DNA from: a virus | Taxonomy: Duplodnaviria > Heunggongvirae > Uroviricota > Caudoviricetes | DNA: 40,713 nt | Direction: 5' to 3' (one strand) | Virus record (IMG/VR): IMGVR_UViG_2671180360_000017 | In this document: positions 18,928-37,600 of the stretch, one piece after another | How positions within the stretch are numbered: the stretch's first letter is position 1 | How the letters are laid out: each line of letters opens with the position of its first letter | Program-made: the position numbers and the translations under genes | Notes under the pieces: generated by a model | Told to the model about the DNA's origin: nothing | Seen by the model: the letters and a program-made list of their open reading frames with translations, nothing else | Databases searched by the model: none

Positions 18928-18930
18928 TCC

Positions 18931-20344: not shown

Positions 20345-20347
20345 ATT

Positions 20348-20563
20348 ATGACGCTTGAGCGAATCAGCGCCTTTATCACGTATTGCATCGCCGTCGTGCT
20401 GGCCTGGCTGGGCGATTTGTCCATCAAGGATGCCTCAACGCTGGGCGGCCTGATGATCGGTGTGCTGATGCTGGCTATCAACTGGTACTACAAACACAAA
20501 GCCTACCAGCTTCTGCGCGACGGGCAGATCTCGCGGGAGGACTATGAATCCATCAATCGTTAA
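20348..20563 (+). CDS. Y: Holin (gpY-like)
   Basis: 71 aa with two hydrophobic helices and a charged C-terminus, immediately upstream of the endolysin. Confidence 0.65.
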   Translation: MTLERISAFITYCIAVVLAWLGDLSIKDASTLGGLMIGVLMLAINWYYKHKAYQLLRDGQISREDYESINR

Positions 20564-21056: not shown

Positions 21057-21057
21057 A

Positions 21058-21435: not shown

Positions 21436-21860
21436 ACCGGTTGCTGCTGGTTGTGCTGGCGTTATTACTGGCGGCGCTGGGCTGGCAGACGTGGCGGCTG
21501 GCTGATGCCAGCCAGACCATCAGCACGCAGGCAGACGAGCTGCAGAGCAAAAGCCAGGCACTGGCAAAGATCAACAGCCAGCTTATCAGCTTGTCCATTC
21601 TGACTGAAACCAATAAACGGGAGCAGGCGCGGCTCTATGCCGAAGCAGAACAGACCAGCGCGCTGCTGAGACAACGACAACACCGGATCGAGGAACTGAA
21701 ACGTGAGAACGAGGATTTACGCCGCTGGGCTGATACCCCTTTGCCTGCTGACATTATCCGGCTGCGAAAACGTCCGGCATTCACCGGAGGTGCAGCTTAC
21801 CGTCAGTGGTTGTCCGCGAGTGACGCCGTGTCGGCTGGATCAGGCCGCGCCGCACACTAA
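21432..21860 (+). CDS. lysB: LysB (Rz-like inner-membrane spanin)
   Basis: 142 aa, N-terminal transmembrane helix then coiled-coil-like region; overlaps lysC in another frame. Confidence 0.6.
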   Translation: MNRLLLVVLALLLAALGWQTWRLADASQTISTQADELQSKSQALAKINSQLISLSILTETNKREQARLYAEAEQTSALLRQRQHRIEELKRENEDLRRWADTPLPADIIRLRKRPAFTGGAAYRQWLSASDAVSAGSGRAAH

Positions 21861-21993
21861 CGGTGATCTGAGCGCATTGCTGGATGAAACGGAAGCCGCC
21901 TGGGCGGTCTGTGCAGATAAAGTGGACATGATTATTGCGTGTCAGGAGCGAAACAGTGAACAAACCACAATCCCTGCGCCACGCCCTCAATAA
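21703..21993 (+). CDS. lysC: LysC (Rz1-like outer-membrane lipoprotein spanin)
   Basis: 96 aa with lipobox LTLSGC; begins inside lysB in a different frame, the typical Rz/Rz1 arrangement. Confidence 0.6.
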   Translation: MRTRIYAAGLIPLCLLTLSGCENVRHSPEVQLTVSGCPRVTPCRLDQAAPHTNGDLSALLDETEAAWAVCADKVDMIIACQERNSEQTTIPAPRPQ

Positions 21994-22387
21994 AGCGGTG
22001 CCTTATGTCCGCAATAACCCGGACAAACTGCATCTGTTTGTGGATAACGGTTCGCTGGTTGCTACAGGGGCCAGCTCCATGTCATGGGAGTATCGTTACA
22101 CCCTGAACGTAGTGGTTGAGGATTTCAGCGGCGACCAGAATCTGTTGATGGCCCCGGTTTTGCTGTGGCTGCGGGATAACCAGCCCGATGCCATCAATAA
22201 CCCGGCGTTACGGGAAAAGTTATTCACCTTTGAGGTGGATATTCTGCGCAATGATGTCTGTGATATCAGCCTGAACCTGCAACTGACGGAGCGTGTGCTG
22301 GTCAGCACTGACGGCAGTGTGTCGAGCGTTGAAGCGATAACGGAACCCGATGAACCTGAAGAAATGTGGACGGTGAAACGTGGCTGA
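21956..22387 (+). CDS. R: Tail completion protein gpR
   Basis: N-terminus NKPQSLRHAL resembles P2 R; start uncertain (GTG at 21956 or upstream at 21935). Confidence 0.7.
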   Translation: MNKPQSLRHALNKAVPYVRNNPDKLHLFVDNGSLVATGASSMSWEYRYTLNVVVEDFSGDQNLLMAPVLLWLRDNQPDAINNPALREKLFTFEVDILRNDVCDISLNLQLTERVLVSTDGSVSSVEAITEPDEPEEMWTVKRG

Positions 22388-22823
22388 ATTGCAGAAAGTG
22401 GACGACTGGCTGAGTGCCTTACTGGCGAATCTGGAGCCAGCTGCAAGAAGTCGCATGATGCGCCAACTGGCACAGGAGCTGCGCCGGACACAGCAGCAAA
22501 ACATCAGGATGCAGCGCAATCCAGATGGCAGTAGTTATGAGCCGCGACGGGTAACAGCGCGCAGTAAAAAAGGCCGCATCAAACGTCAGATGTTTGCGAA
22601 GCTGCGCACCACAAAATACCTGAAAACTGCCGCCAGCGCCGATTCTGCCAGTGTGCAGTTTGAAGATAAGGTGCAGCGCATTGCCCGTGTTCACCATTAT
22701 GGACTGCGTGATCGTGTCAGTAAACGTGGGCCGATAGTTCATTATTCCAGACGATGCTTGCTAGGTATTAATGAGCCTATTAAAAAAGAAGTTGAGAGAT
22801 TTTTGATATATTGTATTTCATAA
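22380..22823 (+). CDS. S: Tail completion protein gpS
   Basis: 147 aa (P2 S about 150); synteny after R; C-terminal codons run into AT-rich cargo DNA. Confidence 0.7.
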   Translation: MAELQKVDDWLSALLANLEPAARSRMMRQLAQELRRTQQQNIRMQRNPDGSSYEPRRVTARSKKGRIKRQMFAKLRTTKYLKTAASADSASVQFEDKVQRIARVHHYGLRDRVSKRGPIVHYSRRCLLGINEPIKKEVERFLIYCIS

Positions 22824-22863
22824 CTTGCGTATATTGTTGCCCAGTGGCGATCTGGGCTTTATT

Positions 22864-24732
22864 TTAATTTTCAATGCTTTGCTTTAATTTATCTATTGCG
22901 GGAGTTAAACAATCATTTATGAGCTCATCGATTTGTAATGATAATATATTTGAGTTTATTTGAGTTTTCTTTTCAATTAGCTTTCTAATTAGCTCACGGT
23001 GGAAAAAACGCTCTGCAGAAAGCTCTTTTAGATAAGGGGAGTTGTTGTATCGGTTTTTTATAGCATAGCCAAAGAAATGCATCTCGGTTGAGTCTACCAG
23101 TATTTTTGTTAGTTGTTCAGCATCACCAAAATAAAGAACTGGTTTGTCGTGAAATGAATAAATATCTTTGTTGTTGAAATTTAGATGTGCGTAATATTCA
23201 TGATTTCCGGCCTGTATTAATTTGAATATCTTTTGAGCGTCTTGGCTAAGTTGATATGCAATTAACACATTTTTCTTTTGTTCTATGTAATTAACAAGCT
23301 CCTTGAATTCCCTAGTTTCTTTGCAATGAAAAGTTAATCCTCCCCATCGCTCATCCTTAATGTCTTCATCAAAAATTTCATAACTAGTTTGTATCATTCC
23401 TTTTTCTGCTAAAATATCAACAGCAGAGTGGGCTAAGTTTGTTAAATAGTGTTCGTTGATGGGTTTTATGTGTTCTCTGGATAAATGAAGTAATAATCCG
23501 TAAATATGCTTAAGAACATGCTCGTTCAATATTTCAAAATTAATAAGCGTATGAAGTGTTGAATTGTAATTTTCCTCAAATTCTGTGTATTTTAATCGAT
23601 CATAATTCCAAAGTTGTGTCCATGGCTCAATTGTTTTATTAGAAACACTGACAAATGTTATTAATTCAGATATTATTTTTTCTTGATTGATTTTCTGATT
23701 GTCAATTATATCGATCCAGGTATCCTCGTCTAAGATTAAATTTGACAAATAAGTTGTACCATATTTTTCAATTAAATTGGATGTGTATTTATTATCATCA
23801 TCTATTTTATATGTTAACAAGTCAGAAACGGTTCGTTTTATTTTATTAGATTCAAAATAGAGTATAAAATGTAATTGATATAATCTGAGTGTCAAATCTG
23901 AATTTTGCTGAAACTGTGCTGGTAATATTTTGAATATTCTTTCAAAAAAAGAAATTTGCCTTTCAATTAATCTAATGTTATTACACTCTGAAAGAGTGAG
24001 TAAGCTCTCAATATTTTTTATGTTCAGAATGGTGTTGAGTTCGCTAGTTATATTTTTTAGAAAATATTCGTAGGCGTGAGAATGTTGAGGTTGATATTTG
24101 AAAGTTATACCTATAACTTTTTCTTTTGCATCTAAATAAATACCATCATGATTTTTATTTCTAGCGGGGTTTAATATTTCTCTCTCATTGGCGATAATCA
24201 AAACCTTGCATTCTTTTTCTTCAACGAAATTATTTATATAACCAAATATAGAATTCCAATCTAATTCGCAGCGTTCAAGATCATCAAATATCAATATGGT
24301 GTTTTCTGGTGAGTAGTAAAAGTCTTTAATACTTACGTTGGGTAGTTCTGGGGAGCCCTCTACACTTGTAACGAATGAATCACTTAAATCAATCTTAAGT
24401 GTGCCTTTAATTAGTGCCTTAGTTAGTGTGCCAGCAAGCAACATGCCTTTAGATGAAAGGAAGGGATGCATTTGCTTGAAAATTATTTCGTCAATTTGTT
24501 CGGTGGATTTTATTCCATATAATGAGATCATTAATGGCTTAACTTCCCCTTTTAGTGATTCTTCATTCATTAATTTACGGACAAACCATGTTTTCCCGCT
24601 TCCCCATTCGCCGTCAATCATTACTGCGAAATTAGGGGATTTTTCAAGACCCACTAAATAATTAAGATATGAGGTTAGCTCTTCATTGTAATTCATTGGA
24701 TTGTAAGACCCTTCATACAATTTGAAAATCAC
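22864..24732 (-). CDS. KAP-family P-loop NTPase (622 aa), antisense cargo gene between S and V
   Basis: Walker A GEWGSGKT (KAP-type GxWGxGKT) and Walker B ILIFDDLE; strongly AT-rich; opposite strand to the flanking late genes; alternative start at Met 13 (24696). Confidence 0.75.
   Translation of the reverse strand: MIFKLYEGSYNPMNYNEELTSYLNYLVGLEKSPNFAVMIDGEWGSGKTWFVRKLMNEESLKGEVKPLMISLYGIKSTEQIDEIIFKQMHPFLSSKGMLLAGTLTKALIKGTLKIDLSDSFVTSVEGSPELPNVSIKDFYYSPENTILIFDDLERCELDWNSIFGYINNFVEEKECKVLIIANEREILNPARNKNHDGIYLDAKEKVIGITFKYQPQHSHAYEYFLKNITSELNTILNIKNIESLLTLSECNNIRLIERQISFFERIFKILPAQFQQNSDLTLRLYQLHFILYFESNKIKRTVSDLLTYKIDDDNKYTSNLIEKYGTTYLSNLILDEDTWIDIIDNQKINQEKIISELITFVSVSNKTIEPWTQLWNYDRLKYTEFEENYNSTLHTLINFEILNEHVLKHIYGLLLHLSREHIKPINEHYLTNLAHSAVDILAEKGMIQTSYEIFDEDIKDERWGGLTFHCKETREFKELVNYIEQKKNVLIAYQLSQDAQKIFKLIQAGNHEYYAHLNFNNKDIYSFHDKPVLYFGDAEQLTKILVDSTEMHFFGYAIKNRYNNSPYLKELSAERFFHRELIRKLIEKKTQINSNILSLQIDELINDCLTPAIDKLKQSIEN
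24702..24719. promoter_or_regulatory. Ogr-type late-promoter site (TGT-N12-ACA) for the V operon (P_V)
   Basis: tgtaagacccttcataca about 45 bp upstream of the V start; lies within the first codons of the KAP ORF if its first ATG is used. Confidence 0.45.
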
Positions 24733-24764
24733 TATTTTCTTTTGATTTCATGCAAACTGCAACC

Positions 24765-25343
24765 ATGAACGCACAACTCACAGAAATCATGCGCCTTATC
24801 ACCAACCTGATCCGCACAGGTGTAGTCACCGAAGTGGACCGGGAAAACTGGCTTTGTCGGGTGAAAACGGGCGACCTTGAAACCAACTGGATTAACTGGC
24901 TGACGCTGCGCGCGGGTAATGCCCGCACATGGTGGCGACCATCGGAAGGTGAGCAGGTGGTGCTGCTGAGTCTGGGCGGCAATCTGGAAACCGCCTTTGC
25001 GCTGCCCGCTGTCTATTCGAATCAGTTCGCACCACCGTCGGCGTCGATGGACGCCTGTGTGACAGAACATCCTGACGGTGGCTGGTTTGAATACGAACCC
25101 GCTACCGGGCGCTGGTATGTCAGGGGAATCAAATCCATGGTCATTGAAGCTGCCGACAACATCACCCTGAAAACCAGTGAGTTTGTGCTGGAGGCCGACC
25201 GCACGCGTATTAACAGCGAAATGGTAATCAATGGTGGCGTTATCCAGGGCGGCGGTGCAATGAGTTCTAACGGAATTGTGGTTGATGCACATCAGCATAC
25301 TGGCGTCCTGAAAGGCGGCGACACAACCGGAGGCCCGGTATGA
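24765..25343 (+). CDS. V: Baseplate spike / assembly protein gpV
   Basis: N-terminus aligns with P2 V (LIRTGVVTEVD ... CRVKTG); alternative start at 24750. Confidence 0.8.
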   Translation: MNAQLTEIMRLITNLIRTGVVTEVDRENWLCRVKTGDLETNWINWLTLRAGNARTWWRPSEGEQVVLLSLGGNLETAFALPAVYSNQFAPPSASMDACVTEHPDGGWFEYEPATGRWYVRGIKSMVIEAADNITLKTSEFVLEADRTRINSEMVINGGVIQGGGAMSSNGIVVDAHQHTGVLKGGDTTGGPV

Positions 25344-25699
25344 CGCTTTATAGTGGGATGAACAATACCAGCGGCAAAGCCATTACTGATATTGACCATC
25401 TGCGCCAGTCGGTGCGGGACATTCTGCTGACGCCACAGGGTAGCCGCATTGCCCGTCGTGAATATGGTTCTCTGCTGTCGGCACTGATAGACCAGCCACA
25501 AAATCCGGCATTACGCCTGCAGGTCATGTCGGCAGTGTATGTGGCGCTGAGTCGCTGGGAGCCACGGCTGACGCTGGATTCCATCACCATCAACAGCAAC
25601 TTTGACGGTTCTATGGTGGTGGAGCTGACCGGGCGGCGGAATAACGGTGTGCCTGTGTCCCTTTCCGTATCAACAGGAGCAGAGAATGGCAGTGATTGA
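25340..25699 (+). CDS. W: Baseplate protein gpW (gp25-like)
   Basis: 119 aa (P2 W about 115), overlaps the V stop. Confidence 0.75.
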   Translation: MTLYSGMNNTSGKAITDIDHLRQSVRDILLTPQGSRIARREYGSLLSALIDQPQNPALRLQVMSAVYVALSRWEPRLTLDSITINSNFDGSMVVELTGRRNNGVPVSLSVSTGAENGSD

Positions 25700-26594
25700 C
25701 CTTTCGCAGTTGCCTGCACCGCAGATTGTGGATGTGCCGGACTTTGAGACGCTGCTTGCCGAACGCAAGGCAGAATTTGTGGCGCTTCATCCGAAAGATG
25801 AGCAGGAAGCAGTGATCCGCACGCTGGAACTGGAATCTGAACCCGTCACCAAATTGTTGCAGGAGAATGCTTACCGTGAGTTGCTTCTGCGCCAGCGCAT
25901 TAACGAAGCCGCGCAGGCGGTGATGGTGGCTTACGCGATGGGCGGCGATCTTGACCAGCTCGCTGCCAACTACAACGTGAAACGCCTGACGGTGACGCCT
26001 GCTGATAATGACGCTGTTCCGCCCGTTGCAGCTGTGATGGAAAGCGATGAAGCGTTACGCCTGCGTGTGCCTGCAGCCTTTGAAGGGCTTTCAGTTGCGG
26101 GACCAACTGCAGCTTATGAATTTCATGCCCGAAGCGCCGACGGTCGGGTGGCGGATGCCAGTGCAACCAGTCCGGCACCTGCAGAGGTGGTGCTTACGGT
26201 CCTAAGCCGTGAAGGCGACGGAACAGCAGGAAAAGACTTGCTGGATGTGGTGGAAAAAGCCCTGAACAGTGAGAACGTCCGCCCGGTGGCTGACCGTCTG
26301 ACGGTTCGCAGCGCAGAAATCATCCCGTACCGGGTGGATGCCACCATTTTTCTCTATCCGGGGCCGGAAGCCGAGCCGGTAATGGCAGCGGCAAAAGCCA
26401 GCCTGCAGAAGTACATCGCCAGTCAGACGCGGCTTGGTCGGGATATTCGCCGTAGCGCCATCTTTGCCGCCCTGCATGTTGAGGGTGTTCAACGTGTGGA
26501 ACTGGCTTCGCCGCTGGCGGATGTGGTCCTGAACAAAACGCAGGCGGCATCATGTACACAGTGGAGCGTGGCCAACGGGGGAACGGATGAATAG
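25686..26594 (+). CDS. J: Baseplate protein gpJ
   Basis: Start at MAVIDLSQLP gives 302 aa, same as P2 J; synteny. Confidence 0.8.
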   Translation: MAVIDLSQLPAPQIVDVPDFETLLAERKAEFVALHPKDEQEAVIRTLELESEPVTKLLQENAYRELLLRQRINEAAQAVMVAYAMGGDLDQLAANYNVKRLTVTPADNDAVPPVAAVMESDEALRLRVPAAFEGLSVAGPTAAYEFHARSADGRVADASATSPAPAEVVLTVLSREGDGTAGKDLLDVVEKALNSENVRPVADRLTVRSAEIIPYRVDATIFLYPGPEAEPVMAAAKASLQKYIASQTRLGRDIRRSAIFAALHVEGVQRVELASPLADVVLNKTQAASCTQWSVANGGTDE

Positions 26595-27192
26595 TCTGCT
26601 GCCACCGGGTTCAACGCCACTGGAGCGCCGACTGGCGCAAACCTGCAGCGGGATTTCTGATTTGCAGGTGCCGCTGCGTGATCTGTGGGATCCGGCTACC
26701 TGTCCGGTCAGTTTCCTGCCTTATCTCGCCTGGGCGTTCTCTGTGGATCGATGGGACGAGGGCTGGACGGAAAGCGTCAAACGCCAGGTGGTGAAGGATG
26801 CTTTTTATATATATCAGCATAAAGGAACCACCAGTGCCGTGCGGCGGGTGGTGGAGCCGTTCGGCTTTCTGATCCGCATTATCGAGTGGTGGCAGACCGG
26901 AGAGACACCGGGCACGTTTCGCCTGGACATTGGTGTGCAGGACCAGGGCATCACTGAAGATACCTATCTGGAACTTGAGCGGCTGATAAGCGATGCCAAA
27001 CCATGTAGCCGTCACATGATCGGCATGTCCATCAATCTGCAGACCAGCGGCCCGCATTGGGTGGGGGCAGCCAGTTATCTTGGCGAAGAAATCACGATCT
27101 ATCCGTATATCAACGAAACAATTATTTCTGGCGGCACCGCGCATGAAGGCGGGGCAGTCCACGTTATTGACACAGTGAGAGTGAATCCATGA
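26587..27192 (+). CDS. I: Baseplate protein gpI
   Basis: 201 aa; synteny between J and H. Confidence 0.75.
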   Translation: MNSLLPPGSTPLERRLAQTCSGISDLQVPLRDLWDPATCPVSFLPYLAWAFSVDRWDEGWTESVKRQVVKDAFYIYQHKGTTSAVRRVVEPFGFLIRIIEWWQTGETPGTFRLDIGVQDQGITEDTYLELERLISDAKPCSRHMIGMSINLQTSGPHWVGAASYLGEEITIYPYINETIISGGTAHEGGAVHVIDTVRVNP

Positions 27193-28703
27193 GCACAAAA
27201 TTTTATACCCTGCTGACGGAGATTGGTGCGGCGAAACTTGCCAGCGCCACTGCACTTGGTGTGCCGCTTAAAATTACCCATATGGCGGTGGGGGATGGCG
27301 GTGGAGCATTGCCGACGCCGGACGCAAAGCAGACTGCACTGGTAAATGAGAAACGCCGGGCTGCGCTGAATATGCTCTATATCGACCCGCAGAACAGCAG
27401 TCAGATTATTGCTGAACAGGTGATCCCCGAAAACGAGGGCGGTTGGTGGATCCGTGAAGTGGGCCTGTTTGATGAATCAGGGGCATTGATTGCCGTCGGC
27501 AACTGCCCGGAAAGCTATAAGCCGCAACTGGCTGAAGGCAGCGGGCGCACCCAGACCGTGCGCATGGTGCTGATAACCAGCAGCACGGACAATATCACCC
27601 TGAAAATCGACCCTGCTGTAGTGCTGGCAACCCGCAAGTATGTGGATGACAAGGCACTGGAGCTGAAGGTGTATGTGGATGACCAAATGGCAAAACACCT
27701 TGCCGCAGCGGACCCACATTCACAGTATGCGCCAAAATCCAGCCCGACATTTACTGGAACCCCCAAAGCGCCAACGCCAGCGGAGGGGAATAACACCACG
27801 CAGATTGCGACCACCGCGTTTGTTCAGGCGGCACTGCTGGCCCTTATTAATGGTGCGCCAGCCACACTGGATACGCTGAAAGAAATTGCCGCTGCCATTA
27901 ATAATGACCCGAAATTCAGTACCACCATTAACAATGCGCTGGCACTGAAAGCGCCGCTGTCAAGTCCGGCACTCACCGGAACGCCAACAGCCCCCACTGC
28001 CGCACAGTCGGTTAACAATACACAGATTGCCACCACGGCTTTTGTGAAATCGGCAATTGCGGCAATGGTGGGGTCTGCACCTGCTGCACTGGATACACTG
28101 AACGAACTGGCTGCGGCGCTGGGGAATGACCCGAACTTTGCCACGACAATGCTTAATGCGCTGGCAGGTAAACAACCGCTGGACAATACGCTGACTAATT
28201 TGAGTGGAAAGGATGTAGCTGGTCTTCTCGCATACCTTGGTTTGGGAGAAGGTTCGGTGTTACCCGTTGGTGTGCCTGTTCCGTGGCCTGCAGCCACTCC
28301 GCCAACAGGCTGGCTGAAATGCAATGGTGCGGCTTTTTCTGCTGAAGAATACCCAGAACTGGCAAAGGCTTACCCGACAAATAAATTGCCTGATTTACGT
28401 GGTGAGTTTATGCGTGGCTGGGATGATGGAAGAGGCGTTGATAGTGGCAGGGGGATTCTCACTGCGCAATCTCATGGTATGCCGTCTATTTCAGGAACGT
28501 TTAATGGTCTTTTTGCTGTTAAACAAACAAATGGTTTAGGTGGTGTTTCTGTAGCAAAAAGTACAAATGCTGAAACTTTATCTACTTCATCTGGATCAGG
28601 TTCCGTGTTTGATTACACGTTTAATGTCAGCGGTTCGACTCCGGTATCACCAGAACTTCGTCCGCGTAATATTGCATTTAACTATATCGTGAGGGCCGCA
28701 TAA
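27189..28703 (+). CDS. H: Tail fibre protein gpH (constant N-terminal part plus variable C-terminus Hv1 as currently assembled)
   Basis: 504 aa; the C-terminal 150 aa after the crossover site show the Mu S / P1 S-type motif GWLKCNGAAFSAEEYPELAKAYPTNKLPDLRGEF. Confidence 0.85.
   Translation: MSTKFYTLLTEIGAAKLASATALGVPLKITHMAVGDGGGALPTPDAKQTALVNEKRRAALNMLYIDPQNSSQIIAEQVIPENEGGWWIREVGLFDESGALIAVGNCPESYKPQLAEGSGRTQTVRMVLITSSTDNITLKIDPAVVLATRKYVDDKALELKVYVDDQMAKHLAAADPHSQYAPKSSPTFTGTPKAPTPAEGNNTTQIATTAFVQAALLALINGAPATLDTLKEIAAAINNDPKFSTTINNALALKAPLSSPALTGTPTAPTAAQSVNNTQIATTAFVKSAIAAMVGSAPAALDTLNELAAALGNDPNFATTMLNALAGKQPLDNTLTNLSGKDVAGLLAYLGLGEGSVLPVGVPVPWPAATPPTGWLKCNGAAFSAEEYPELAKAYPTNKLPDLRGEFMRGWDDGRGVDSGRGILTAQSHGMPSISGTFNGLFAVKQTNGLGGVSVAKSTNAETLSTSSGSGSVFDYTFNVSGSTPVSPELRPRNIAFNYIVRAA
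28225..28250 (+). repeat. hix/gix-like 26 bp invertase crossover site A, inside H
   Basis: TTCTCGCATACC TT GGTTTGGGAGAA; imperfect dyad resembling hixL (TTCTTGAAAACCAAGGTTTTTGATAA); inverted-repeat identity starts at its central TT. Confidence 0.6.
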
Positions 28704-29305
28704 TGAATAATGCAGAATTAAATAGTGAATTGATTGCTACTGCGGCAGGGAATATTACCGTTTATAACTATGATTGTGAAACACGAGAATATATTTCCAC
28801 ATCAACTGAATATCTTGCTGTGGGTGTCGGTATCCCGGTATGTTCCTGTCTGGATACACCAGGTATACATAAGGCGGGTTATGCAATATGCCGCTCTGTG
28901 GATTTAAATTCATGGGAATATGTGCCAGACCATCGAGGTGAAATTGTCTATAGCACCGAAACGGGAGATACCAAAGAAATCACAGTGCCAGGCGACTATC
29001 CCGAAAATACAACCACTATCGCCCCGTTAACGCCATACGATAAATGGGATGGTGAGAAATGGGTGACCGATATTGAGGCACAGCATAGCGCCGCAGTAGA
29101 CGCGGCAGAAGCGCATCGCCAATCGCGGATTGATGCTGCAATGGCTTCCATCAGTCTGATTCAGCTGAAATTGCAGGCCGGACGTAAACTGACGCAGGCA
29201 GAAACAACCCGGCTTAACGCTGTGCTGGATTACATTGACGCGGTGGTGGCAACAGATACCAGCACCGCGCCGGATGTCATCTGGCCTGAACTACCGGAGG
29301 CGTAG
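28703..29305 (+). CDS. G: Tail fibre assembly protein (Tfa / gpG-like), copy 1
   Basis: 200 aa with the Tfa C-terminal motif DTSTAPDVIWPELP; immediately follows H. Confidence 0.8.
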   Translation: MNNAELNSELIATAAGNITVYNYDCETREYISTSTEYLAVGVGIPVCSCLDTPGIHKAGYAICRSVDLNSWEYVPDHRGEIVYSTETGDTKEITVPGDYPENTTTIAPLTPYDKWDGEKWVTDIEAQHSAAVDAAEAHRQSRIDAAMASISLIQLKLQAGRKLTQAETTRLNAVLDYIDAVVATDTSTAPDVIWPELPEA

Positions 29306-29738
29306 GCCATTCAATATCTGGAGCACTGGAAATATCGACCATTTCCAGTGCATCCAGATAATCCAGCCACAAATTATATTGTGCCAGTTCCTCACCTTTC
29401 AGACGACCGATAGCTGCTTTACCAGGCCATTGCTTACCGTTCATGTATTCGTTGGCATGGTCAATTCTCGACTTTTTCTCTGAGTCAGCCGCAGCAAGTT
29501 GTTCTTTATGCGTAGGTGACGGAAGATCTACCCAGCAAGGCAACCCATCATCACCAATGCCACGCATTTTACCCTCAGGAGCGTTTCCCATGAAAACCAG
29601 TGCATCTTCAGCATCTATATTGATGCCGTCTGACGGCCATGTGCCAGCAGTTAAATAATCATATTTCAGTGCCACAAGATAAAAAGCATTTTCCGTCGGG
29701 CTGAATACATAGTCGACCATTAATATCCCACCCCCCAT
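29277..29738 (-). CDS. Second-type tail fibre assembly protein (153 aa), inverted copy
   Basis: Tfa C-terminal motif DISSAPDIEWPTPP; identical to 30184-30645 on the other strand. Confidence 0.7.
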   Translation of the reverse strand: MGGGILMVDYVFSPTENAFYLVALKYDYLTAGTWPSDGINIDAEDALVFMGNAPEGKMRGIGDDGLPCWVDLPSPTHKEQLAAADSEKKSRIDHANEYMNGKQWPGKAAIGRLKGEELAQYNLWLDYLDALEMVDISSAPDIEWPTPPVVQAR

Positions 29739-29834
29739 ACTGCCACTGTTGAATTAGATTTCGTGTATGCGCAAGCGGCTTTGAATTTGACCCGGTCAAC
29801 AATCGCTGCGCTAACAAAAGGGGCTCCATTAGTC

Positions 29835-29860
29835 GCGTAGATCACATTGGTTTGGGAGAA
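29835..29860 (+). repeat. Crossover site B (conserved right half-site joined to non-consensus left flank)
   Basis: gcgtagatcaca TT GGTTTGGGAGAA; the right half is identical to site A, the left half is interior Hv2 sequence. Confidence 0.5.
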
Positions 29861-30202
29861 GCAGCGAAAATGCCTGCTGCGACAGCATTAGCCAGCAGTG
29901 CAGGTAACATCACTATTCCAGTATTAATTGGTGGAGTACAACGAACAGCATTGCTTCAGTGGAAGACGCTATCAGTGCCGCAATCTACCGACGGTAATAT
30001 GGTCGTTGTTGATGGCTCATGGCCGGTTGCCTTTCCTAATGCTTGCCTTTCCATCAATCCTTCGCTGGTAAATTCTGTGATCTACGCGACTAATGGAGCC
30101 CCTTTTGTTAGCGCAGCGATTGTTGACCGGGTCAAATTCAAAGCCGCTTGCGCATACACGAAATCTAATTCAACAGTGGCAGTATGGGGGGTGGGATATT
30201 AA
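29861..30202 (+). CDS. Promoterless alternative tail-fibre C-terminal cassette Hv2
   Basis: Frame is continuous with the LGLGE codons of the crossover site, so fusion to H constant would give a 111 aa alternative C-terminus; followed by its own tfa. Confidence 0.55.
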   Translation, partial: AAKMPAATALASSAGNITIPVLIGGVQRTALLQWKTLSVPQSTDGNMVVVDGSWPVAFPNACLSINPSLVNSVIYATNGAPFVSAAIVDRVKFKAACAYTKSNSTVAVWGVGY

Positions 30203-30645
30203 TGGTCGACTATGTATTCAGCCCGACGGAAAATGCTTTTTATCTTGTGGCACTGAAATATGATTATTTAACTGCTGGCACATGGCCGTCAGACGGCATC
30301 AATATAGATGCTGAAGATGCACTGGTTTTCATGGGAAACGCTCCTGAGGGTAAAATGCGTGGCATTGGTGATGATGGGTTGCCTTGCTGGGTAGATCTTC
30401 CGTCACCTACGCATAAAGAACAACTTGCTGCGGCTGACTCAGAGAAAAAGTCGAGAATTGACCATGCCAACGAATACATGAACGGTAAGCAATGGCCTGG
30501 TAAAGCAGCTATCGGTCGTCTGAAAGGTGAGGAACTGGCACAATATAATTTGTGGCTGGATTATCTGGATGCACTGGAAATGGTCGATATTTCCAGTGCT
30601 CCAGATATTGAATGGCCTACGCCTCCGGTAGTTCAGGCCAGATGA
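30184..30645 (+). CDS. Second-type tail fibre assembly protein (153 aa), partner of Hv2
   Basis: Tfa motif; overlaps the Hv2 stop. Confidence 0.7.
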   Translation: MGGGILMVDYVFSPTENAFYLVALKYDYLTAGTWPSDGINIDAEDALVFMGNAPEGKMRGIGDDGLPCWVDLPSPTHKEQLAAADSEKKSRIDHANEYMNGKQWPGKAAIGRLKGEELAQYNLWLDYLDALEMVDISSAPDIEWPTPPVVQAR

Positions 30646-31219
30646 CATCCGGCGCGGTGCTGGTATCTGTTGCCACCACCGCGTCAATGTAATCCAGCAC
30701 AGCGTTAAGCCGGGTTGTTTCTGCCTGCGTCAGTTTACGTCCGGCCTGCAATTTCAGCTGAATCAGACTGATGGAAGCCATTGCAGCATCAATCCGCGAT
30801 TGGCGATGCGCTTCTGCCGCGTCTACTGCGGCGCTATGCTGTGCCTCAATATCGGTCACCCATTTCTCACCATCCCATTTATCGTATGGCGTTAACGGGG
30901 CGATAGTGGTTGTATTTTCGGGATAGTCGCCTGGCACTGTGATTTCTTTGGTATCTCCCGTTTCGGTGCTATAGACAATTTCACCTCGATGGTCTGGCAC
31001 ATATTCCCATGAATTTAAATCCACAGAGCGGCATATTGCATAACCCGCCTTATGTATACCTGGTGTATCCAGACAGGAACATACCGGGATACCGACACCC
31101 ACAGCAAGATATTCAGTTGATGTGGAAATATATTCTCGTGTTTCACAATCATAGTTATAAACGGTAATATTCCCTGCCGCAGTAGCAATCAATTCACTAT
31201 TTAATTCTGCATTATTCAT
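30617..31219 (-). CDS. Tail fibre assembly protein (Tfa / gpG-like), copy 2 (inverted)
   Basis: Identical to the 28703-29305 product. Confidence 0.7.
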   Translation of the reverse strand: MNNAELNSELIATAAGNITVYNYDCETREYISTSTEYLAVGVGIPVCSCLDTPGIHKAGYAICRSVDLNSWEYVPDHRGEIVYSTETGDTKEITVPGDYPENTTTIAPLTPYDKWDGEKWVTDIEAQHSAAVDAAEAHRQSRIDAAMASISLIQLKLQAGRKLTQAETTRLNAVLDYIDAVVATDTSTAPDVIWPELPEA

Positions 31220-31671
31220 TATGCGGCCCTCACGATATAGTTAAATGCAATATTACGCGGACGAAGTTCTGGTGATACCGGAGTCGAACCGCTGACATTA
31301 AACGTGTAATCAAACACGGAACCTGATCCAGATGAAGTAGATAAAGTTTCAGCATTTGTACTTTTTGCTACAGAAACACCACCTAAACCATTTGTTTGTT
31401 TAACAGCAAAAAGACCATTAAACGTTCCTGAAATAGACGGCATACCATGAGATTGCGCAGTGAGAATCCCCCTGCCACTATCAACGCCTCTTCCATCATC
31501 CCAGCCACGCATAAACTCACCACGTAAATCAGGCAATTTATTTGTCGGGTAAGCCTTTGCCAGTTCTGGGTATTCTTCAGCAGAAAAAGCCGCACCATTG
31601 CATTTCAGCCAGCCTGTTGGCGGAGTGGCTGCAGGCCACGGAACAGGCACACCAACGGGTAACACCGAACC
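31219..31671 (-). CDS. Silent inverted copy of the Hv1 tail-fibre C-terminal cassette
   Basis: Identical to the H C-terminus; no constant part upstream. The ORF track extension to 31725 is read-through into unique DNA. Confidence 0.6.
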   Translation of the reverse strand, partial: GSVLPVGVPVPWPAATPPTGWLKCNGAAFSAEEYPELAKAYPTNKLPDLRGEFMRGWDDGRGVDSGRGILTAQSHGMPSISGTFNGLFAVKQTNGLGGVSVAKSTNAETLSTSSGSGSVFDYTFNVSGSTPVSPELRPRNIAFNYIVRAA

Positions 31672-31697
31672 TTCTCCCAAACCAACGTTTATGAAAA
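31672..31697 (-). repeat. Crossover site C (inverted relative to A and B), next to the invertase gene
   Basis: TTCTCCCAAACC AA CGTTTATGAAAA on the plus strand; inner half is the reverse complement of the site A right half. Confidence 0.6.
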
Positions 31698-31752
31698 TGC
31701 AGAGATAATGGCTAACTGGCATCATCCCCGGTTTTTATTCAGGGGATTGATC

Positions 31753-32319
31753 ATGCTTATTGGCTATGTACGCGTGTCAACAAATGACCAGAACACCGAT
31801 TTGCAACGTAATGCACTGAACTGCGCGGGATGTGAGCGGATTTTTGAGGATAAAATCAGTGGCACTAAGTCCGACAGACCGGGGCTGAAAAAACTGCTCA
31901 GGACACTATCGGCAGGAGACACGCTGGTTGTCTGGAAGCTGGACAGGTTGGGGCGCAGTATGCGGCATCTTGTTACGCTGATAGAAGAGTTGCGTCAGCG
32001 TGGCGTGAATTTCCGAAGCCTGACTGACAGTATTGATACCAGCACCCCAATGGGCCGTTTCTTTTTTCATGTCATGGGGGCCCTGGCTGAAATGGAACGC
32101 GAACTGATAGTTGAACGTACCAGGGCAGGGCTGGCTGCAGCTCGTGCTAAAGGCAGAGTAGGTGGACGCCGTCCTAAGTTGACTACCGAACAGTGGGCAC
32201 AGATTGGGCGTTTACTCGAGGCCGGAGAATCAAGACAGCGTATTGCACTGATTTTTGATGTAGGCGTTTCTACCATTTATAGAAAATTTCCGGCAAATAA
32301 GAGCAATGAATCCCCCTGA
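31753..32319 (+). CDS. Serine DNA invertase (Hin/Gin/Cin/Pin family)
   Basis: Start at MLIGYVRVSTNDQ (catalytic Ser motif); very close to Salmonella Hin along the whole length including the C-terminal HTH; 188 aa. Confidence 0.85.
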   Translation: MLIGYVRVSTNDQNTDLQRNALNCAGCERIFEDKISGTKSDRPGLKKLLRTLSAGDTLVVWKLDRLGRSMRHLVTLIEELRQRGVNFRSLTDSIDTSTPMGRFFFHVMGALAEMERELIVERTRAGLAAARAKGRVGGRRPKLTTEQWAQIGRLLEAGESRQRIALIFDVGVSTIYRKFPANKSNESP

Positions 32320-32367
32320 ATCAGCATTATTTTGATTATCCCTGCAAGCAGACAAATACCGTCATTT

Positions 32368-32385
32368 TGTGTGAATAACGGTACA
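32368..32385. promoter_or_regulatory. Ogr-type late-promoter site (TGT-N12-ACA) for the FI operon (P_F)
   Basis: tgtgtgaataacggtaca about 80 bp upstream of FI. Confidence 0.45.
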
Positions 32386-32461
32386 ACTGCGCTTAGCTGT
32401 TTGTCAGGCACAATCACTTCAACATAGGGCGAAACCTAATCCAATCAGGAGGTTCGCCGCT

Positions 32462-33634
32462 ATGGCTCAGGATTACCACCACGGGGTGCGCGTTGTTGAA
32501 GTCAACGAAGGCACCCGATCCATTACCACGGTGAGCACCGCCATCGTGGGTATGGTCTGCACGGGCGATGATGCCGATGCAAAAATGTTTCCTCTTAATA
32601 AACCCGTGCTGATCACTGATGTGCTGACTGCCAGCGGTAAAGCGGGTGAGTCCGGTACGCTGGCCCGTTCGCTGGACGCCATCGCTGACCAGGCAAAACC
32701 CGTGACCGTTGTTGTGCGTGTGCCGCAGGGTGAAACGGAAGAAGAAACCACGACCAATATCATCGGAGCAGTGACCGCTGAAGGTAAAAAAACAGGCATG
32801 AAAGCCCTGTTATCTGCCCAGTCACAGCTCGGCGTTAAACCGCGCATTCTCGGCGTGCCAGGTCACGATAACAAAGCCGTTGCTACTGAGTTGCTGAGTG
32901 TGGCGCAAAGCCTGCGTGGGTTTGCCTACCTGTCAGCGTATGGCTGCAAGACGGTACAGGAGGCGACCACTTACCGTGAAAACTTCAGCCAGCGCGAAGG
33001 GATGCTGATCTGGCCTGACTTTACTGGCTGGGACACGGTGCTGAACGCCGAAGCAATGGCATATGCCACCGCCCGTGCGCTTGGTCTGCGTGCCAAAATT
33101 GATGAGCAGACCGGGTGGCACAAAAGCCTGTCCAACGTGGGCGTGAACGGTGTCACCGGAATTTCTGCAGATGTGTTCTGGGATCTGCAGGACCCGGCAA
33201 CCGATGCAGGTCTGCTGAACCAGAACGACGTCACCACGCTTGTGCGTAAAGACGGTTTCCGCTTCTGGGGTTCCCGCTGCCTGAGTGATGACCCGCTCTT
33301 TGCCTTCGAAAACTACACCCGCACGGCGCAGGTGCTGATGGACACGATGGCAGAAGCACACATGTGGGCGGTGGATAAACCGCTTAACCCGTCGCTGGCC
33401 CGCGACATTATCGAAGGTATCCGCGCCAAAATGCGCAACCTGGTCAGTCAGGGCTATCTCATTGGTGGTGATTGCTGGCTGGACGAGTCGGTGAACGACA
33501 AAGACACGCTTAAAGCCGGAAAACTCACCATCGACTACGACTACACGCCAGTGCCGCCACTTGAAAATCTGATGCTGCGCCAGCGCATCACCGATCAGTA
33601 CCTGGTGAATTTTGCCAGCCAGGTCAGCGCGTAA
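32462..33634 (+). CDS. FI: Tail sheath protein gpFI
   Basis: 390 aa (P2 FI about 396); synteny with FII. Confidence 0.85.
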
Positions 33635-33643
33635 GGGGACAAC

Positions 33644-34159
33644 ATGGCTTTACCACGCAAATTAAAACACCTGAACCTGTTTAATGACGGGAACAACTGG
33701 CAGGGGATCGTAGAGTCGCTGACGCTGCCGAAATTCACCCGCAAATATGAGAAGTATCGCGGCGGCGGAATGCCGGGTGCAGTGGATGTGGATCTGGGGC
33801 TTGATGACAGTGCTCTGGACACAGAATTTTCCATTGGTGGTACTGAACTGCTGCTGTTTAAGCAGATGGGCAAAGCCACTGTGGATGGCATCCAGCTGCG
33901 CTTTACCGGCTCTATCCAGCGTGACGATACCGGGGAAGTGCAGGCTGTGGAGCTTGTGGTGCGTGGACGTCACAAAGAAGTGGATTCCGGCGAGTGGAAG
34001 ACGGGCGAAAGCAACACCACCAAAGTGACCAGTACCAACAGCTACGCGAAGCTGACCATCAATGGTGAGGTGCTCTATGAAGTGGACCTTATCAACATGG
34101 TGGAAATTGTGGACGGTGTGGACCTGATGGAAGCGCACCGCAACGCCCTCGGCCTCTGA
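33644..34159 (+). CDS. FII: Tail tube protein gpFII
   Basis: 171 aa (P2 FII about 172). Confidence 0.85.
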   Translation: MALPRKLKHLNLFNDGNNWQGIVESLTLPKFTRKYEKYRGGGMPGAVDVDLGLDDSALDTEFSIGGTELLLFKQMGKATVDGIQLRFTGSIQRDDTGEVQAVELVVRGRHKEVDSGEWKTGESNTTKVTSTNSYAKLTINGEVLYEVDLINMVEIVDGVDLMEAHRNALGL

Positions 34160-34213
34160 TATATCTGAACGGCGCGGGATACCGCGCCAGAACCCAATTT
34201 ACAGGACAGCAAA

Positions 34214-34516
34214 ATGAGCGATAAGCAGACTGAAAAGACTATTCAACTGGATACCCCCATCAAGCGCGGTAAAACAGAAATCACCGAAATTGTGCTGCGT
34301 AAACCGCAGTCCGGTGCGCTGCGCGGTACACGCCTGCAGGCCATTATGGATATGGATGTAAACGCGATGATGACCGTGATCCCCCGCATCTCCAGTCCGG
34401 CACTGACCGCACAGGAAATTGCAGAGATGGACCCGGCAGATCTCACTGCCATGTCGGTTGAGGTTGTCACTTTTTTGTTGAAGAAGTCGGTGCTTGCCGG
34501 TTTACCGACAGCCTGA
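34214..34516 (+). CDS. E: Tail assembly chaperone gpE
   Basis: 100 aa ORF upstream of the tape-measure gene; contains the slippery heptamer. Confidence 0.75.
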   Translation: MSDKQTEKTIQLDTPIKRGKTEITEIVLRKPQSGALRGTRLQAIMDMDVNAMMTVIPRISSPALTAQEIAEMDPADLTAMSVEVVTFLLKKSVLAGLPTA

Positions 34517-34650
34517 CGGTTGACGATCTGGTGGCAGATATCGCCACCATTTTTCACTGGCCGCCATCCGTTACTGACGTTATGCCGCTGACCGAAGTGC
34601 TGGAATGGCGGTATAAAGCGATTCAGAGAAGCGGGGCCAACGATGAGTGA
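34214..34650 (+). CDS. gpE+E' programmed -1 frameshift product
   Basis: Slippery T-TTT-TTG at 34471-34477; the -1 frame stays open to a TGA at 34648-34650 that overlaps the T start codon. Confidence 0.6.
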
Positions 34651-37600
34651 TAATAACCTGCGCCTTCAGGTCATTCTTAATGCGGTTGACAAGCTCACCC
34701 GCCCATTTCGATCCGCGCAGGCCAGTTCAAGAGAACTGGCTGCTGCTGTCAAAAAATCCCGCGATGCAATAAAGCAGCTTGATCAGGCCGGGAGCAGTCT
34801 GGACAGCTTCCGAAAGCTGCAGGCAGAAAATCAGAAATTAGGCGACAGGCTGAACTATGCCCGCCAGCGTGCAAATTTGCTCAGTCAGGAACTGGGAGCG
34901 ATGGGGCCGCCTTCGCAACGTCAGGTTGTTGCTCTGGGCCGTCAACGGCTGGCTGTTCAGCGCCTGGAAGAACGCCAGAAAAAGCTGCAGCAGCAGACGG
35001 CGCTTGTGCGTGCTGAACTGTACCGGGCGGGAATTTCTGCGAAAGACGATGCGGGAGCAACTGCCCGTTTAGCCCGTGAAACATCACGTTATAACCAGGA
35101 ACTTTCGAAACAGGAGGCGCGGCTGAAGCGACTGGGGGAAGCTCAGCGCAGGATGAATGCAGCGCGTGCCAGTTATGCCCGTTCGCTGGAGGTGCGTGAT
35201 CGTATTGCAGGTGCCGGAGCCACCACCACGGCTGCAGGGCTGGCAATGGGCGCACCAGTGATGGCGGCAGTAAAAAGCTATACCAGCATGGAAGATGCCA
35301 TGAAAGGTGTGGCAAAGCAGGTCAATGGTCTGCGTGACGATAATGGCAATCGCACTGCGCGTTTTTATGAAATGCAGGATGCCATCAAGGCTGCCAGCGA
35401 ACAGTTGCCGATGGAAAACGGTGCTGTGGACTTCGCCGCACTGGTTGAAGGTGGGGCGCGCATGAACGTCGCAAACCCTGACGACAGCTGGGAAGACCAG
35501 AAACGTGACCTGCTGGCCTTCGCCAGCACGGCGGCAAAGGCGGCAACAGCCTTTGAGCTGCCAGCGGATGAACTGTCAGAAAGTCTGGGGAAAATCGCCC
35601 AGCTCTACAAAATCCCCACCCGCAATATTGAACAGCTCGGTGATGCGCTGAACTATCTGGATGATAACGCCATGTCGAAAGGGGCAGACATCATTGATGT
35701 GATGCAACGTCTGGGCGGTGTGGCTGACCGTCTGGATTATCGTAAAGCGGCGGCGCTGGGTTCCACCTTCCTGACACTGGGCGCTGCGCCAGAGGTTGCA
35801 GCCAGTGCAGCAAACGCGATGGTGCGTGAATTGTCCATTGCCACCATGCAAAGCAAGAGTTTCTTTGAAGGGATGAATCTGCTGAAACTCAATCCTGAAG
35901 TGATTGAAAAGCAGATGACGAAGGATGCGATGGGAACCATCCAGCGCGTGCTGGAGAAGGTAAACGCGCTGCCGCAGGACAAGCGCCTGTCTGCCATGAC
36001 CATGTTGTTTGGTAAAGAGTTTGGCGATGACGCGGCGAAACTGGCAAATAACCTGCCGGAACTGCAGCGTCAGTTAAAACTGACAGCGGGCAATGATGCG
36101 CTCGGCTCCATGCAGAAAGAATCCGACATCAACAAGGACTCACTTTCTGCTCAGTGGTTGCTGGTCAAAACCGGGGCGCAGAACACCTTCAGCAGCCTGG
36201 GCGAAAAGCTGCGCCAGCCACTGATGGATATTCTGTACACGGTGAAAAGCATCACGGGGGCGTTGCGCCGCTGGGTGGCAGCTAACCCGGAACTGACAGG
36301 CACACTGATGAAAGTAGCAGCGGTTGTGGCTGCGGTTACCGTAGGCCTCGGCACCTTAGCGGTGGCGCTGGCTGCAGTGCTGGGGCCGCTGGCAGTGATC
36401 CGTCTGGGATTCTCTGTGCTGGGTATCAAAACGTTACCTTCCGTTACGGCAGCAGTAACTCGAACCAGCAGCGCGTTGTCCTGGCTGGCTGGCGCACCAC
36501 TGGCACTGCTGCGACGCGGGCTTGCTTTATCGGGCAACGTCGCAGGTTTACTTACTGCGCCGTTGTCGTCTTTGCGCCGCACGGCATCACTGACGGGAAA
36601 TGTCCTGAAAACTGTAGCAGGTGCGCCGGTTGCACTTTTGCGGTCTGGATTATCCGGCTTACGTGCTGTTGCTGTGATGTTTATGAATCCACTGGCAGCA
36701 CTACGCGGTGGACTGGCTGCCGCAGGCGCGGTGCTGCGTGTGCTCGCATCCGGCCCGCTGGCGATGCTGCGCGTTGCCCTGTATGCCGTATCTGGTCTGT
36801 TAGGTGCTCTGCTCAGTCCGATAGGTCTTGTGGTTACTGCACTGGCGGGCGTGGCGCTGGTTGTCTGGAAATACTGGCAACCCATCACCGCATTTCTTGG
36901 TGGCGTGGTGGAAGGATTCAAAGCGGCGGCAGGTCCCGTCAGTGCAGCATTCGAACCGCTTAAGCCCGTGTTCCAGTGGATTGGCGACAAAGTACAGGCG
37001 CTGTGGGGCTGGTTTACTGATCTGCTGACGCCCGTTAAGTCGACCTCTGCCGAACTGCAGAGTGCAGCGGCAATGGGGCGGAGATTCGGGGAGGCACTGG
37101 CGGAAGGGCTGAATATGGTCATGCATCCGCTGGACTCCCTGAAATCCGGCGTTTCCTGGTTGCTGGAGAAACTCGGCATTGTCAGTAAAGAGGCTGCAAA
37201 AGCGAAACTGCCGGAAAGCGTGACGCGTCAGCAACCTGCGACGGTGAATGCAGACGGTAAAGTGATAATGCCATCGGGTGGTTTTCCGTCATGGGGATAT
37301 GGCTTTGCGGGGATGTATGACAGCGGCGGGTATATCCCGCGCGGGCAGTTCGGCATTGTCGGTGAAAACGGGCCTGAAATTGTCAACGGTCCGGCAAACG
37401 TGACCAGCCGGAGAAATACAGCTGCACTGGCTGCGGTTGTCGCCGGAATGATGGGCGTTGCTGCCGCGCCAGCAGAGCTTCCACCGTTGCATCCTTTGGC
37501 GCTTCCCGCGAAAGGCGGCGAAGCGATGGTGAGTCGCGCAGCCACTGTGCCGCCCGTTCACCGGATTGAGGCACCGACGCAGATCATCATCCAGACGCAG

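Follow-up and report, generated by a model that had tools for sequence, protein, structure and literature searches.

The closest described counterparts of this locus are the invertible tail-fibre segments of phage Mu (G segment, invertase Gin), phage P1 (C segment, Cin) and e14 (P segment, Pin). In each of these, a serine invertase gene lies directly beside the segment, two inverted 26-bp crossover sites with a 12 + 2 + 12 layout flank it, and two alternative fibre C termini are encoded on opposite strands, each with an assembly gene. The Mu G segment is approximately 3 kb, and the Fis-dependent enhancer of such systems usually lies inside the 5' part of the invertase gene. Similar switches operate in P2-like prophages, whose tail-fibre segments flip constantly in clonal cultures of E. 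coli such as EPEC E2348/69; read mapping and PCR revealed that both orientations coexist in these cultures (Goldberg et al. 2014, PMC4272514). A genuine system of three repeats, with four variants and three different C termini, was described in the same study.

All three properties of the Mu, P1 and e14 systems recur in the window analysed here, which is the whole 40,713-nucleotide stretch of IMG/VR virus record IMGVR_UViG_2671180360_000017. The source record of the window is CYDK01000014.1 of draft assembly GCA_001285005.1 (locus L085). The relevant features are as follows.

27189-28703, plus strand: H, the tail fibre gene, with a tail-collar fibre N terminus and a Collar domain
27189-28236, plus strand: Hc, the constant part of H up to the crossover (Pfam Phage_tail_fib, residues 1-150)
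28225-28250, plus strand: site A, the fibre-proximal crossover site, 26 bp (12 + 2 + 12), TTCTCGCATACC TT GGTTTGGGAGAA
28237-29845, plus strand: left piece, the segment in orientation 1, ending 230 nt early; exact reverse complement of 30077-31685
28703-29305, in the left piece: tfa1 (Caudo_TAP)
29277-29738, in the left piece: inverted tfa2 (Caudo_TAP)
29835-29860, plus strand: "site B", an apparent third site, with the left half GCGTAGATCAC-N and then TT GGTTTGGGAGAA
29846, no strand: a single N, shown as "A" in the window
29847-31685, plus strand: right piece, the complete 1,839-bp segment in orientation 2, from crossover TT to crossover AA
29852-30202, in the right piece: Hv2, a gp53-like C terminus
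31672-31697, minus strand: site C, the invertase-proximal crossover site, 26 bp, reverse complement TTTTCATAAACG TT GGTTTGGGAGAA
31753-32319, plus strand: serine DNA invertase of the Gin/Hin/Cin/Pin group, 188 aa, N terminus MLIGYVRVSTNDQ

The real element at this locus is a canonical 1,839-bp invertible tail-fibre segment of the Gin/Cin/Pin type, carried by a P2-like prophage, and belongs to a known kind. Pfam domain analysis of the invertase revealed a Resolvase domain (2.9e-53) and an HTH_7 domain (1.7e-15); the scan used a 203-aa open reading frame from 31708, the gene as called being 188 aa. Residues 1-184 aligned with the phage Mu Gin structures 3UJ3 and 4M6F (E = 8e-93). The protein carries the motif YVRVSTNDQ, and the crystal protein has A at the serine position. 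By similarity to Gin, a Fis-dependent recombinational enhancer would be expected in cis. Sites A and C are inverted, and both contain TT followed by GGTTTGGGAGAA; their outer halves agree with the inner half at 10 of 12 (A) and 8 of 12 (C) positions. Joined to Hc, Hv1 gives a protein of 504 aa and Hv2 one of 467 aa, each with a single terminal stop and with the first 354 residues in common, and each cassette has its own Caudo_TAP gene. Opposite orientations are found in different records, with Hc followed by Hv2 in L104 and by Hv1 in L083, L084, L089 and L003. Thus, the marks of a Gin/Hin/Cin/Pin-type switch (invertase domains, two inverted sites, an in-frame swap of the C terminus and both orientations in nature) were all found.

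What sets the window apart is a large inverted repeat. The initial annotation had reported that positions 28237-29846 are the exact reverse complement of 30076-31685, a perfect repeat of 1,610 nt around a 229-nt centre, and these coordinates are correct, with 0 mismatches in the window as supplied. A repeat finder gave arms of 1,622 nt at "100%", but these arms include an outer stretch of 12 bases in which only 7 pair; the shorter coordinates are therefore correct. The length of the repeat is far beyond chance. Open reading frames and Pfam domains also bore out the cassette map proposed at that stage. The left piece holds Hv1 (to 28703), tfa1, inverted tfa2 and the last ~42 codons of an inverted Hv2, and the right piece holds Hv2 (to 30202), tfa2 (30202-30645), inverted tfa1 (30617-31219) and inverted Hv1 (31219-31671). 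The region had been described as orientation 1, cut 229 bp early, followed by a complete orientation 2. This is exactly what is present, the join between the two being a single N. Both ends of the perfect repeat, outer and inner, fall exactly on crossover dinucleotides.

The window gives "A" at position 29846, whereas the source record has "N" at this point (approximately record position 35720), and this is the sole difference between the two over window positions 20189-35703 (15,515 nt). The N is the innermost base of the left arm and is followed at once by the TT of "site B"; the repeat that was actually sequenced consists of 1,609 nt and one undetermined base. The claimed junction runs from GCGTAGATCACA into TTGGTTTGGGAGAAGCAGCG. 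Because the record has an N here, the one junction on which the duplication depends was never sequenced. The novel junction falls on the gap character of the deposited record, as a false join predicts, and the piece to the right of the N begins exactly at the crossover TT. The likeliest origin of the N is scaffolding, with two assembled pieces joined at this base. The 32-nt junction was absent from viral, species-representative genome and metagenome collections, a weak result in that the record's own N could not match.

Inspection of the crossover sites pointed in the same direction. The conserved inner half-site GGTTTGGGAGAA (a2) occurs exactly three times in the window, at 28239 (plus), 29849 (plus) and 31672 (minus). 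Among the fetched loci, the outer half of site A precedes TT-a2-Hv1 in 9 and that of site C precedes TT-a2-Hv2 in 13. The right half and centre of "site B" are the true segment start, and its left half is internal Hv2 sequence from the other piece. This left half agrees with natural half-sites at 3 to 4 of 12 positions, compared with 7 to 10 of 12 among the natural half-sites themselves. An equal or higher score against them is reached by 57% of all 12-mers in the segment, and the left half is indistinguishable from random sequence. Its parental sequence has the centre GA and not TT, and the left flank of "site B" was found in L085 only among all fetched loci. The initial annotation had proposed a real, invertase-made partial duplication that yields a three-site multiple-inversion system. 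That proposal is not borne out: an N lies at the join, and "site B" is half real and half arbitrary Hv2 sequence. We did not recognize a third functional crossover site, since the half-site of "site B" is random-like and spans the N of the source record.

The sequence was then compared with other assemblies and genomes. Collapsed to orientation 1, the window is 39,103 nt; it matched the same-series assembly L089 over 16,071 nt and the IMG/VR provirus L003, itself 39,103 nt, over 16,609 nt, both with 0 mismatches. With the join removed, the sequence is thus identical to these independent records, as expected of a false join, and the closest relatives are exactly 1,610 bp shorter. The left piece runs on from the left flank and is 100% identical to L089; the right piece is 99.7 to 99.9% identical to the single segment of L002, L083, L084 and L089. 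A flank contig from ERR178186, a data set that may or may not belong to this sample, was 100% identical. In an independent assembly (L104; GCA_000617365.2), a 1,833-bp segment piece, from TT-a2 to a2'-AA, lies between runs of 82 N and 80 N, and several short-read contigs stop at site C or beside it. The window itself holds the left junction of orientation 1 (a1-TT-a2-Hv1) together with the right junction of orientation 2 (Hv1'-a2'-AA-c1'), where a1 and c1 are the outer contexts at sites A and C. Junctions of both states are what would be expected if reads from both orientations were present.

The duplication was not found in 33 complete E. coli genomes with the cassette, in which the query was always split at 200/201, and no analogous duplication was found beside related invertases in 80 IMG/VR loci. 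Assemblies with an identical H protein and 10 places with the exact Hv2 protein showed the canonical arrangement and no duplication, and the junction was not found in any other genome, phage record or contig examined. Neither of the two other properties that characterize the multiple-inversion type (p15B Min and the EPEC three-repeat system) was seen: recurrence in related genomes was absent across the complete genomes, the IMG/VR loci and the identical-H and identical-Hv2 assemblies, and instead of extra distinct cassettes there are only Hv1/tfa1 and Hv2/tfa2, the extra DNA being a base-perfect copy. One IMG/VR contig, 2695420821_000010 (L059/L060), was considered as an analogous duplication and rejected, as it contains only two-orientation junctions and a hairpin inside the sheath gene. 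This contig is a palindromic walk through a related segment and looks like a different assembly artefact.

Taken together, the 1,610-bp duplication is very probably an assembly artefact in which the two orientations were laid end to end across a one-base gap. The initial annotation had offered, as its other option, a chimeric assembly from a culture that contained both orientations. Three observations support it: an N lies at the join, the collapsed sequence is identical to other records, and contigs end at TT. According to this explanation, the phage would have one invertible segment, 1,839 bp from TT to AA, between the inverted 26-bp sites A and C and adjoining the Gin-like serine invertase. 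In one orientation, Hc would be fused to Hv1 and followed by tfa1, giving the 504-aa fibre, and in the other, Hc-Hv2 would be followed by tfa2, giving the 467-aa fibre, so that each switch would alter the receptor-binding tip. The sequenced culture would have held both orientations, and the segment apparently was flipping in it; coexistence of the orientations in clonal cultures (PMC4272514) is the condition that a two-orientation artefact needs. The two possible upstream contexts, a1 (ending in ACC, the outer half of site A) and c1 (ending in ACG, at site C), differ right up to the TT; therefore, when both orientations are present, the segment node of an assembly graph starts at TT. Two pieces would have come out of the assembly, one that ran from the left flank on into the orientation-1 segment and one that comprised the whole orientation-2 segment and the right flank, and a scaffolding or gap-filling step may then have joined the two with a single N. 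The palindrome, its 229-bp centre and "site B" would all result from this join.

A simple graph-walk artefact was considered and rejected, as a pure de Bruijn walk cannot produce the join: two orientations supply no edge from the Hv2-internal left flank (X) to the centre. A scaffolding or gap-filling step is therefore needed, and the N fits with this. Counting against a false join, graph assemblers normally emit each node once, so the second 1,609-nt copy would need an extension or gap-filling step. A real duplication also would break contigs nearby, but one would then expect either upstream "x" context on the centre contig or a merged overlap with no N. SSPACE and GapFiller may put a single N at zero, negative or unclosed gaps. 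In PMC5320598, the pipeline authors describe these programs as greedy and capable of false joins; N gaps mark the joins, and extension ran for 120 iterations. The main text of the GapFiller paper makes no statement on the fate of unclosable gaps.

It is highly unlikely that the palindrome is real, with a Gin-like invertase, or the repair of its abortive break, having joined an arbitrary Hv2 point to a true site and the N being an unlucky call. The cell would then hold a near-perfect palindrome of 3.4 kb, and its three-site switch would allow Hv2 to be expressed only after two successive inversions. In its invertase-made form, unequal exchange between opposite-orientation prophage copies on sister chromosomes would have joined an Hv2-internal secondary site to site A. 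Inversion between A and C would flip only the 229-nt centre of the resulting three-site system; for Hv2 to be exposed, a second inversion (A x B') would have to follow. By our own derivation, this exchange yields the order of the window exactly, the repeat ends lie at the crossover dinucleotides, and real three-repeat inversion systems occur in P2-like prophages (PMC4272514). We nevertheless give it very little credence, as the junction is an N in the record, the secondary site resembles a half-site at only 3 to 4 of 12 positions and has the centre GA, and a same-series assembly that is identical at every base lacks the duplication. With serine invertases, a mismatched centre (GA versus TT) blocks normal religation, and intermolecular events, such as the exchange required here, are strongly disfavoured. 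The TT boundary is equally well explained by contig ends, as in L104. The inner repeat end at TT was dropped as a recombinase signature on account of the N, the L104 contig ends, the random-like half-site and the GA centre.

Repair of an abortive invertase break from an opposite-orientation sister, or a fold-back event, is extremely unlikely to have generated the duplication. Fold-back repair is known to give inverted duplications with short spacers, and one end of the extra copy does lie at the crossover point. However, the N at the junction and the identical same-series assembly without the duplication count equally against this origin, no second instance was found in the 33 complete genomes, the 80 IMG/VR loci or the fetched loci, and the junction lacks microhomology (ACA then TTGG, versus ACA then GAAT in the parental sequence). 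Finally, although some pipelines give a single N for an ambiguous consensus call, it is scarcely credible that this N is a mere low-confidence call in truly contiguous sequence and silent on any join, since no other N occurs in 15.5 kb and this one sits on the final base of the left arm (a coincidence of about 1 in 15,000), and a real flipping centre would give heterogeneity from 29847 and not from 29846, which is common to both states.

With a false join of two orientations as the preferred explanation, the palindrome would be absent from the cell, and the concern raised initially about an instability hotspot would fall away. The import for biology is small: invertible tail-fibre switches of this textbook kind have been seen to flip before in P2-like prophages of E. 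coli. The finding indicates, rather, that draft assemblies can write actively inverting segments as both orientations in tandem. Where gap characters are replaced by bases, as in the window, such joins mimic seamless kilobase palindromes or multi-site shufflons. Ns should be retained in any scan for palindromes, invertons or "new" multiple-inversion systems, and each candidate junction should be compared with their positions. The artefact also provides indirect evidence of an active invertase in the sequenced culture.

In comparison with the known systems, the locus shares its general plan with Mu G, P1 C and e14 P but belongs to a P2-like phage rather than to Mu or P1, its cassettes encode a Collar-domain tip and a gp53-like tip, and its segment is shorter, at 1.84 kb, than that of Mu. 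The P2-like prophages of EPEC E2348/69 match this one in phage type, and their segments switch in the same way. Unlike the EPEC three-repeat locus, the apparent third site here borders only a duplicate of existing cassettes, across an unsequenced junction. The join itself resembles other short-read false joins and gaps at invertible segments, such as the L104 segment, which is isolated between N gaps at TT and AA; unlike those gaps, the one here has shrunk to a single N, and one piece has been extended 1.6 kb into the segment. Substituting a base for that N makes the product look like an uninterrupted palindrome.

The repeat lies exactly where the initial annotation had placed it: positions 28237-29846 and 30076-31685 are reverse complements over all 1,610 nt without a mismatch, and a 229-nt center separates them. 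A repeat finder reported arms of 1,622 nt at "100%" (a rounded value), but only 7 of the 12 added outer bases pair, so that these longer arms take in imperfect outer sequence. Gene calls and domain matches also bore out the gene map proposed for the region (Hv1 and Hv2 are alternative fiber C termini, and tfa1 and tfa2 are their assembly genes). A complete P2-like prophage and the chromosomal DNA flanking it make up the window.

27189-28703: H, tail-collar fiber N terminus and Collar domain
28703-29305: tfa1, Caudo_TAP
29277-29738: tfa2, inverted, Caudo_TAP
29852-30202: Hv2, gp53-like C terminus
Right side of the repeat: mirror copies of tfa2, tfa1, and Hv1
31753-32319: serine invertase, 188 amino acids as called; Resolvase and HTH_7, scanned on the 203-amino-acid open reading frame (ORF) starting at 31708 rather than on the 188-amino-acid call

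An exact look-up of the H protein led to the source record (CYDK01000014.1 in draft assembly GCA_001285005.1), the only match listed in which the gene order is duplicated; other assemblies encode the identical H protein in the canonical order. The record equals the window across 15,515 nt bar one position: 29846 is A in the window and N in the record (around 35720 of CYDK01000014.1). This is the final base of the left arm, directly before the TT of site B. An uncalled base thus lies on the one junction by which a three-site duplication could be told apart from two successive orientations. Gap characters evidently were turned into ordinary bases during preparation of the window, and scaffold joins elsewhere may be hidden likewise.

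Relatives and sister records were then compared with the window. A 400-nt query centered on the junction matched 33 of 5,426 complete Escherichia coli genomes; the match was split at 200/201 in all 33, and no complete genome covered 80% of the query. The query was split likewise in the phage collection. When a 7.2-kb query was used, its counterpart in the closest relatives measured approximately 5,590 bp, shorter by one arm (1,610 bp), and an annotated relative (L002) has the canonical order H, tfa1, inverted tfa2, inverted Hv2, invertase. Among 80 IMG/VR loci with an invertase 83 to 100% identical, two sites 1.5 to 2.8 kb apart were the norm, and neither a third site nor a comparable long repeat was seen in any of them. 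We also built a collapsed orientation 1 window of 39,103 nt (1-29846, the reverse complement of 29847-30075, and 31686 to the end). It matched GCA_001284965.2, which shares its accession series and chromosomal neighbors with the source record, exactly over 16,071 nt, chromosomal flank included. The 16,609-nt IMG/VR locus L003 is contained exactly in it, and the contig of that locus is 39,103 nt, the length of the window minus 1,610. Two further loci, L083 and L084, differed from it at 8 and 6 positions, respectively, over 15.5 kb.

The window has exactly three copies of the 12-mer GGTTTGGGAGAA, the common inner half-site (a2), and each adjoins a TT/AA dinucleotide.

28225-28250: site A, 12+2+12, TTCTCGCATACC TT GGTTTGGGAGAA
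29835-29860: site B, 12+2+12, GCGTAGATCACA TT GGTTTGGGAGAA
31672-31697: site C, reverse complement, 12+2+12, TTTTCATAAACG TT GGTTTGGGAGAA

One arm of the perfect repeat starts at the central TT of A and ends on the base preceding the central TT of B; the other arm extends to the central AA of site C. The natural half-sites agree with one another at 7 to 10 of 12 positions, whereas the left half of site B (x) agrees with them at only 4, a score that at least 57% of the 12-mers contained in the segment would match or better if drawn alike: 57% of them score as high or higher. The parental Hv2 sequence has GA at this position, versus TT in the site.

Why the right-hand piece begins at TT can be read from the sites. 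The possible upstream contexts of the segment are the outer halves of A (ending ACC) and C (ending ACG), which are unlike right up to the TT; therefore, with both orientations in the culture, the longest unambiguous stretch is exactly TT to AA. In an independent draft (L104; GCA_000617365.2, JHNM01000003.1), the same segment is a 1,833-bp island that starts TTGGTTTGGGAGAAG and ends CTTCTCCCAAACCAA, bounded by 82 N (locus positions 2896-2977) and 80 N (4811-4890). The same 15-nt site sequence stands on both sides of each gap, closing the neighboring contigs too, the clear trace that a culture of mixed orientation leaves in short-read assembly. Across all fetched loci, the sequence upstream of TT-a2-Hv2 was the invertase-side half-site (n = 13), variants of it (n = 5), or the Ns of L104; x was found there only in the source record. 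Short-read contigs of other samples stop at or adjoining site C.

We conclude that the palindrome is almost certainly not a real feature. Of the two origins initially offered for it, the N at the junction and the match of the collapsed form to sister records support an assembly chimera of both orientations and argue against a real three-site duplication. Contig-joining and gap-filling tools may leave one N at such a join. One Illumina pipeline in wide use links contigs by read pairs, leaving N gaps, and follows this with 120 iterations of GapFiller; its authors describe both tools as greedy and liable to false joins (PMC5320598). If such a pipeline made the source record, the left contig may have grown one base at a time into the majority orientation, without ever being able to meet a right contig starting with the segment in the opposite orientation; the outcome would be a fill carried too far and a gap of minimal size. 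The main text of the GapFiller paper does not describe a single-N outcome.

A real duplication too would break contigs near these points. However, its center contig would be expected to carry the upstream x context, or the overlap to be merged without an N, and its left piece to end at 29846 rather than 29845; all such readings jointly are very improbable. Unequal exchange between opposite-orientation sister copies yields the exact order of the window, but it was rejected on the poor B half-site and the parental GA. A recombinase signature, suggested by repeat ends at crossover dinucleotides, is weakened by the random-like left half of B and the same GA.

A related P2-like record (IMGVR_UViG_2695420821_000010, contig positions 7249-16577) also has a palindromic layout: inverted invertase, site, segment, inverted site, invertase, part of the sheath gene, mirror image, inverted segment, and inverted H, with 8958-11695 100% reverse-complementary to 13840-16577. 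Apart from a hairpin within the sheath gene, the junctions seen on either side of its center (11696-13120) are all ones that two orientations would give, so that it looks like another assembly artifact at an invertible segment. The lesson is methodological: gap characters should be kept when draft assemblies are scanned.

Elsewhere in the prophage, a 622-amino-acid KAP-family P-loop NTPase (22864-24732, minus strand; PADLOC candidate defense family PDC-S49, E = 4e-135) and an adjacent 188-amino-acid ORF (24732-25298, minus strand) with no Pfam or PADLOC match are inserted between the tail genes S and V and read from the opposite strand. They look like defense cargo. Bounded by the replication gene/DinI on one side and the portal gene on the other, the region at approximately 10500-14031 behaves like a hotspot for variable cargo: close relatives (L106 to L113) carry GmrSD, AIPR, AAA plus S8 peptidase, or SieB, and the window and L113 have a 422-amino-acid protein (window 12763-14031) with no Pfam match on record. 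In L110 (GCA_023787755.1, locus approximately 16700-22415), the late genes past the GmrSD cargo gene (R, lysis genes, X, L, M, N, and O) are reversed in order and strand relative to all other relatives, through either a large inversion or a draft-assembly misjoin.

The element beneath the palindrome is a canonical invertible tail-fiber switch of the known Gin/Cin/Pin type in a P2-like prophage. The invertase contains the YVRVSTNDQ motif, and its residues 1-184 align to phage Mu Gin structures 3UJ3 and 4M6F (E = 8e-93). Recombination between A and C inverts 1,839 bp. The 354-residue constant part of H is joined to Hv1 in state 1 (504 amino acids, followed by tfa1) and to Hv2 in state 2 (467 amino acids, followed by tfa2), and both states were found among public assemblies. 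In several relatives (L002, locus 3869-4436; L096, L099, and L103, locus 2343-2702; and L101), the invertase gene is frameshifted or shortened (119 or 157 amino acids) or annotated as a pseudogene, which would fix the fiber in one orientation. An identical 110-amino-acid Hv2 product with tfa2 lies beside invertases in L098, L101, L102, and L001, which comprise prophages of a different baseplate type (Mu Gp48/GP46-like or Phage_Wedge1) and a dusA-integrated element. The exact Hv2 protein occurred in 282 blocks of the collection, the longest carrying contig being under 2 kb in 105 of them. The Hv2-tfa2 cassette appears to have been exchanged between unrelated phage types.

The window holds the state 1 left junction and the state 2 right junction, which implies that reads of both states were present and that the invertase probably was active in the sequenced culture. 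Such flipping agrees with direct evidence, by mapping and PCR, that tail-fiber segments of P2-like prophages are constantly inverting in clonal cultures of E. coli (PMC4272514). The multiple-inversion systems of p15B (Min) and of EPEC (three-repeat) differ from the element described here, which is without a functional third site, an extra cassette, or recurrence.
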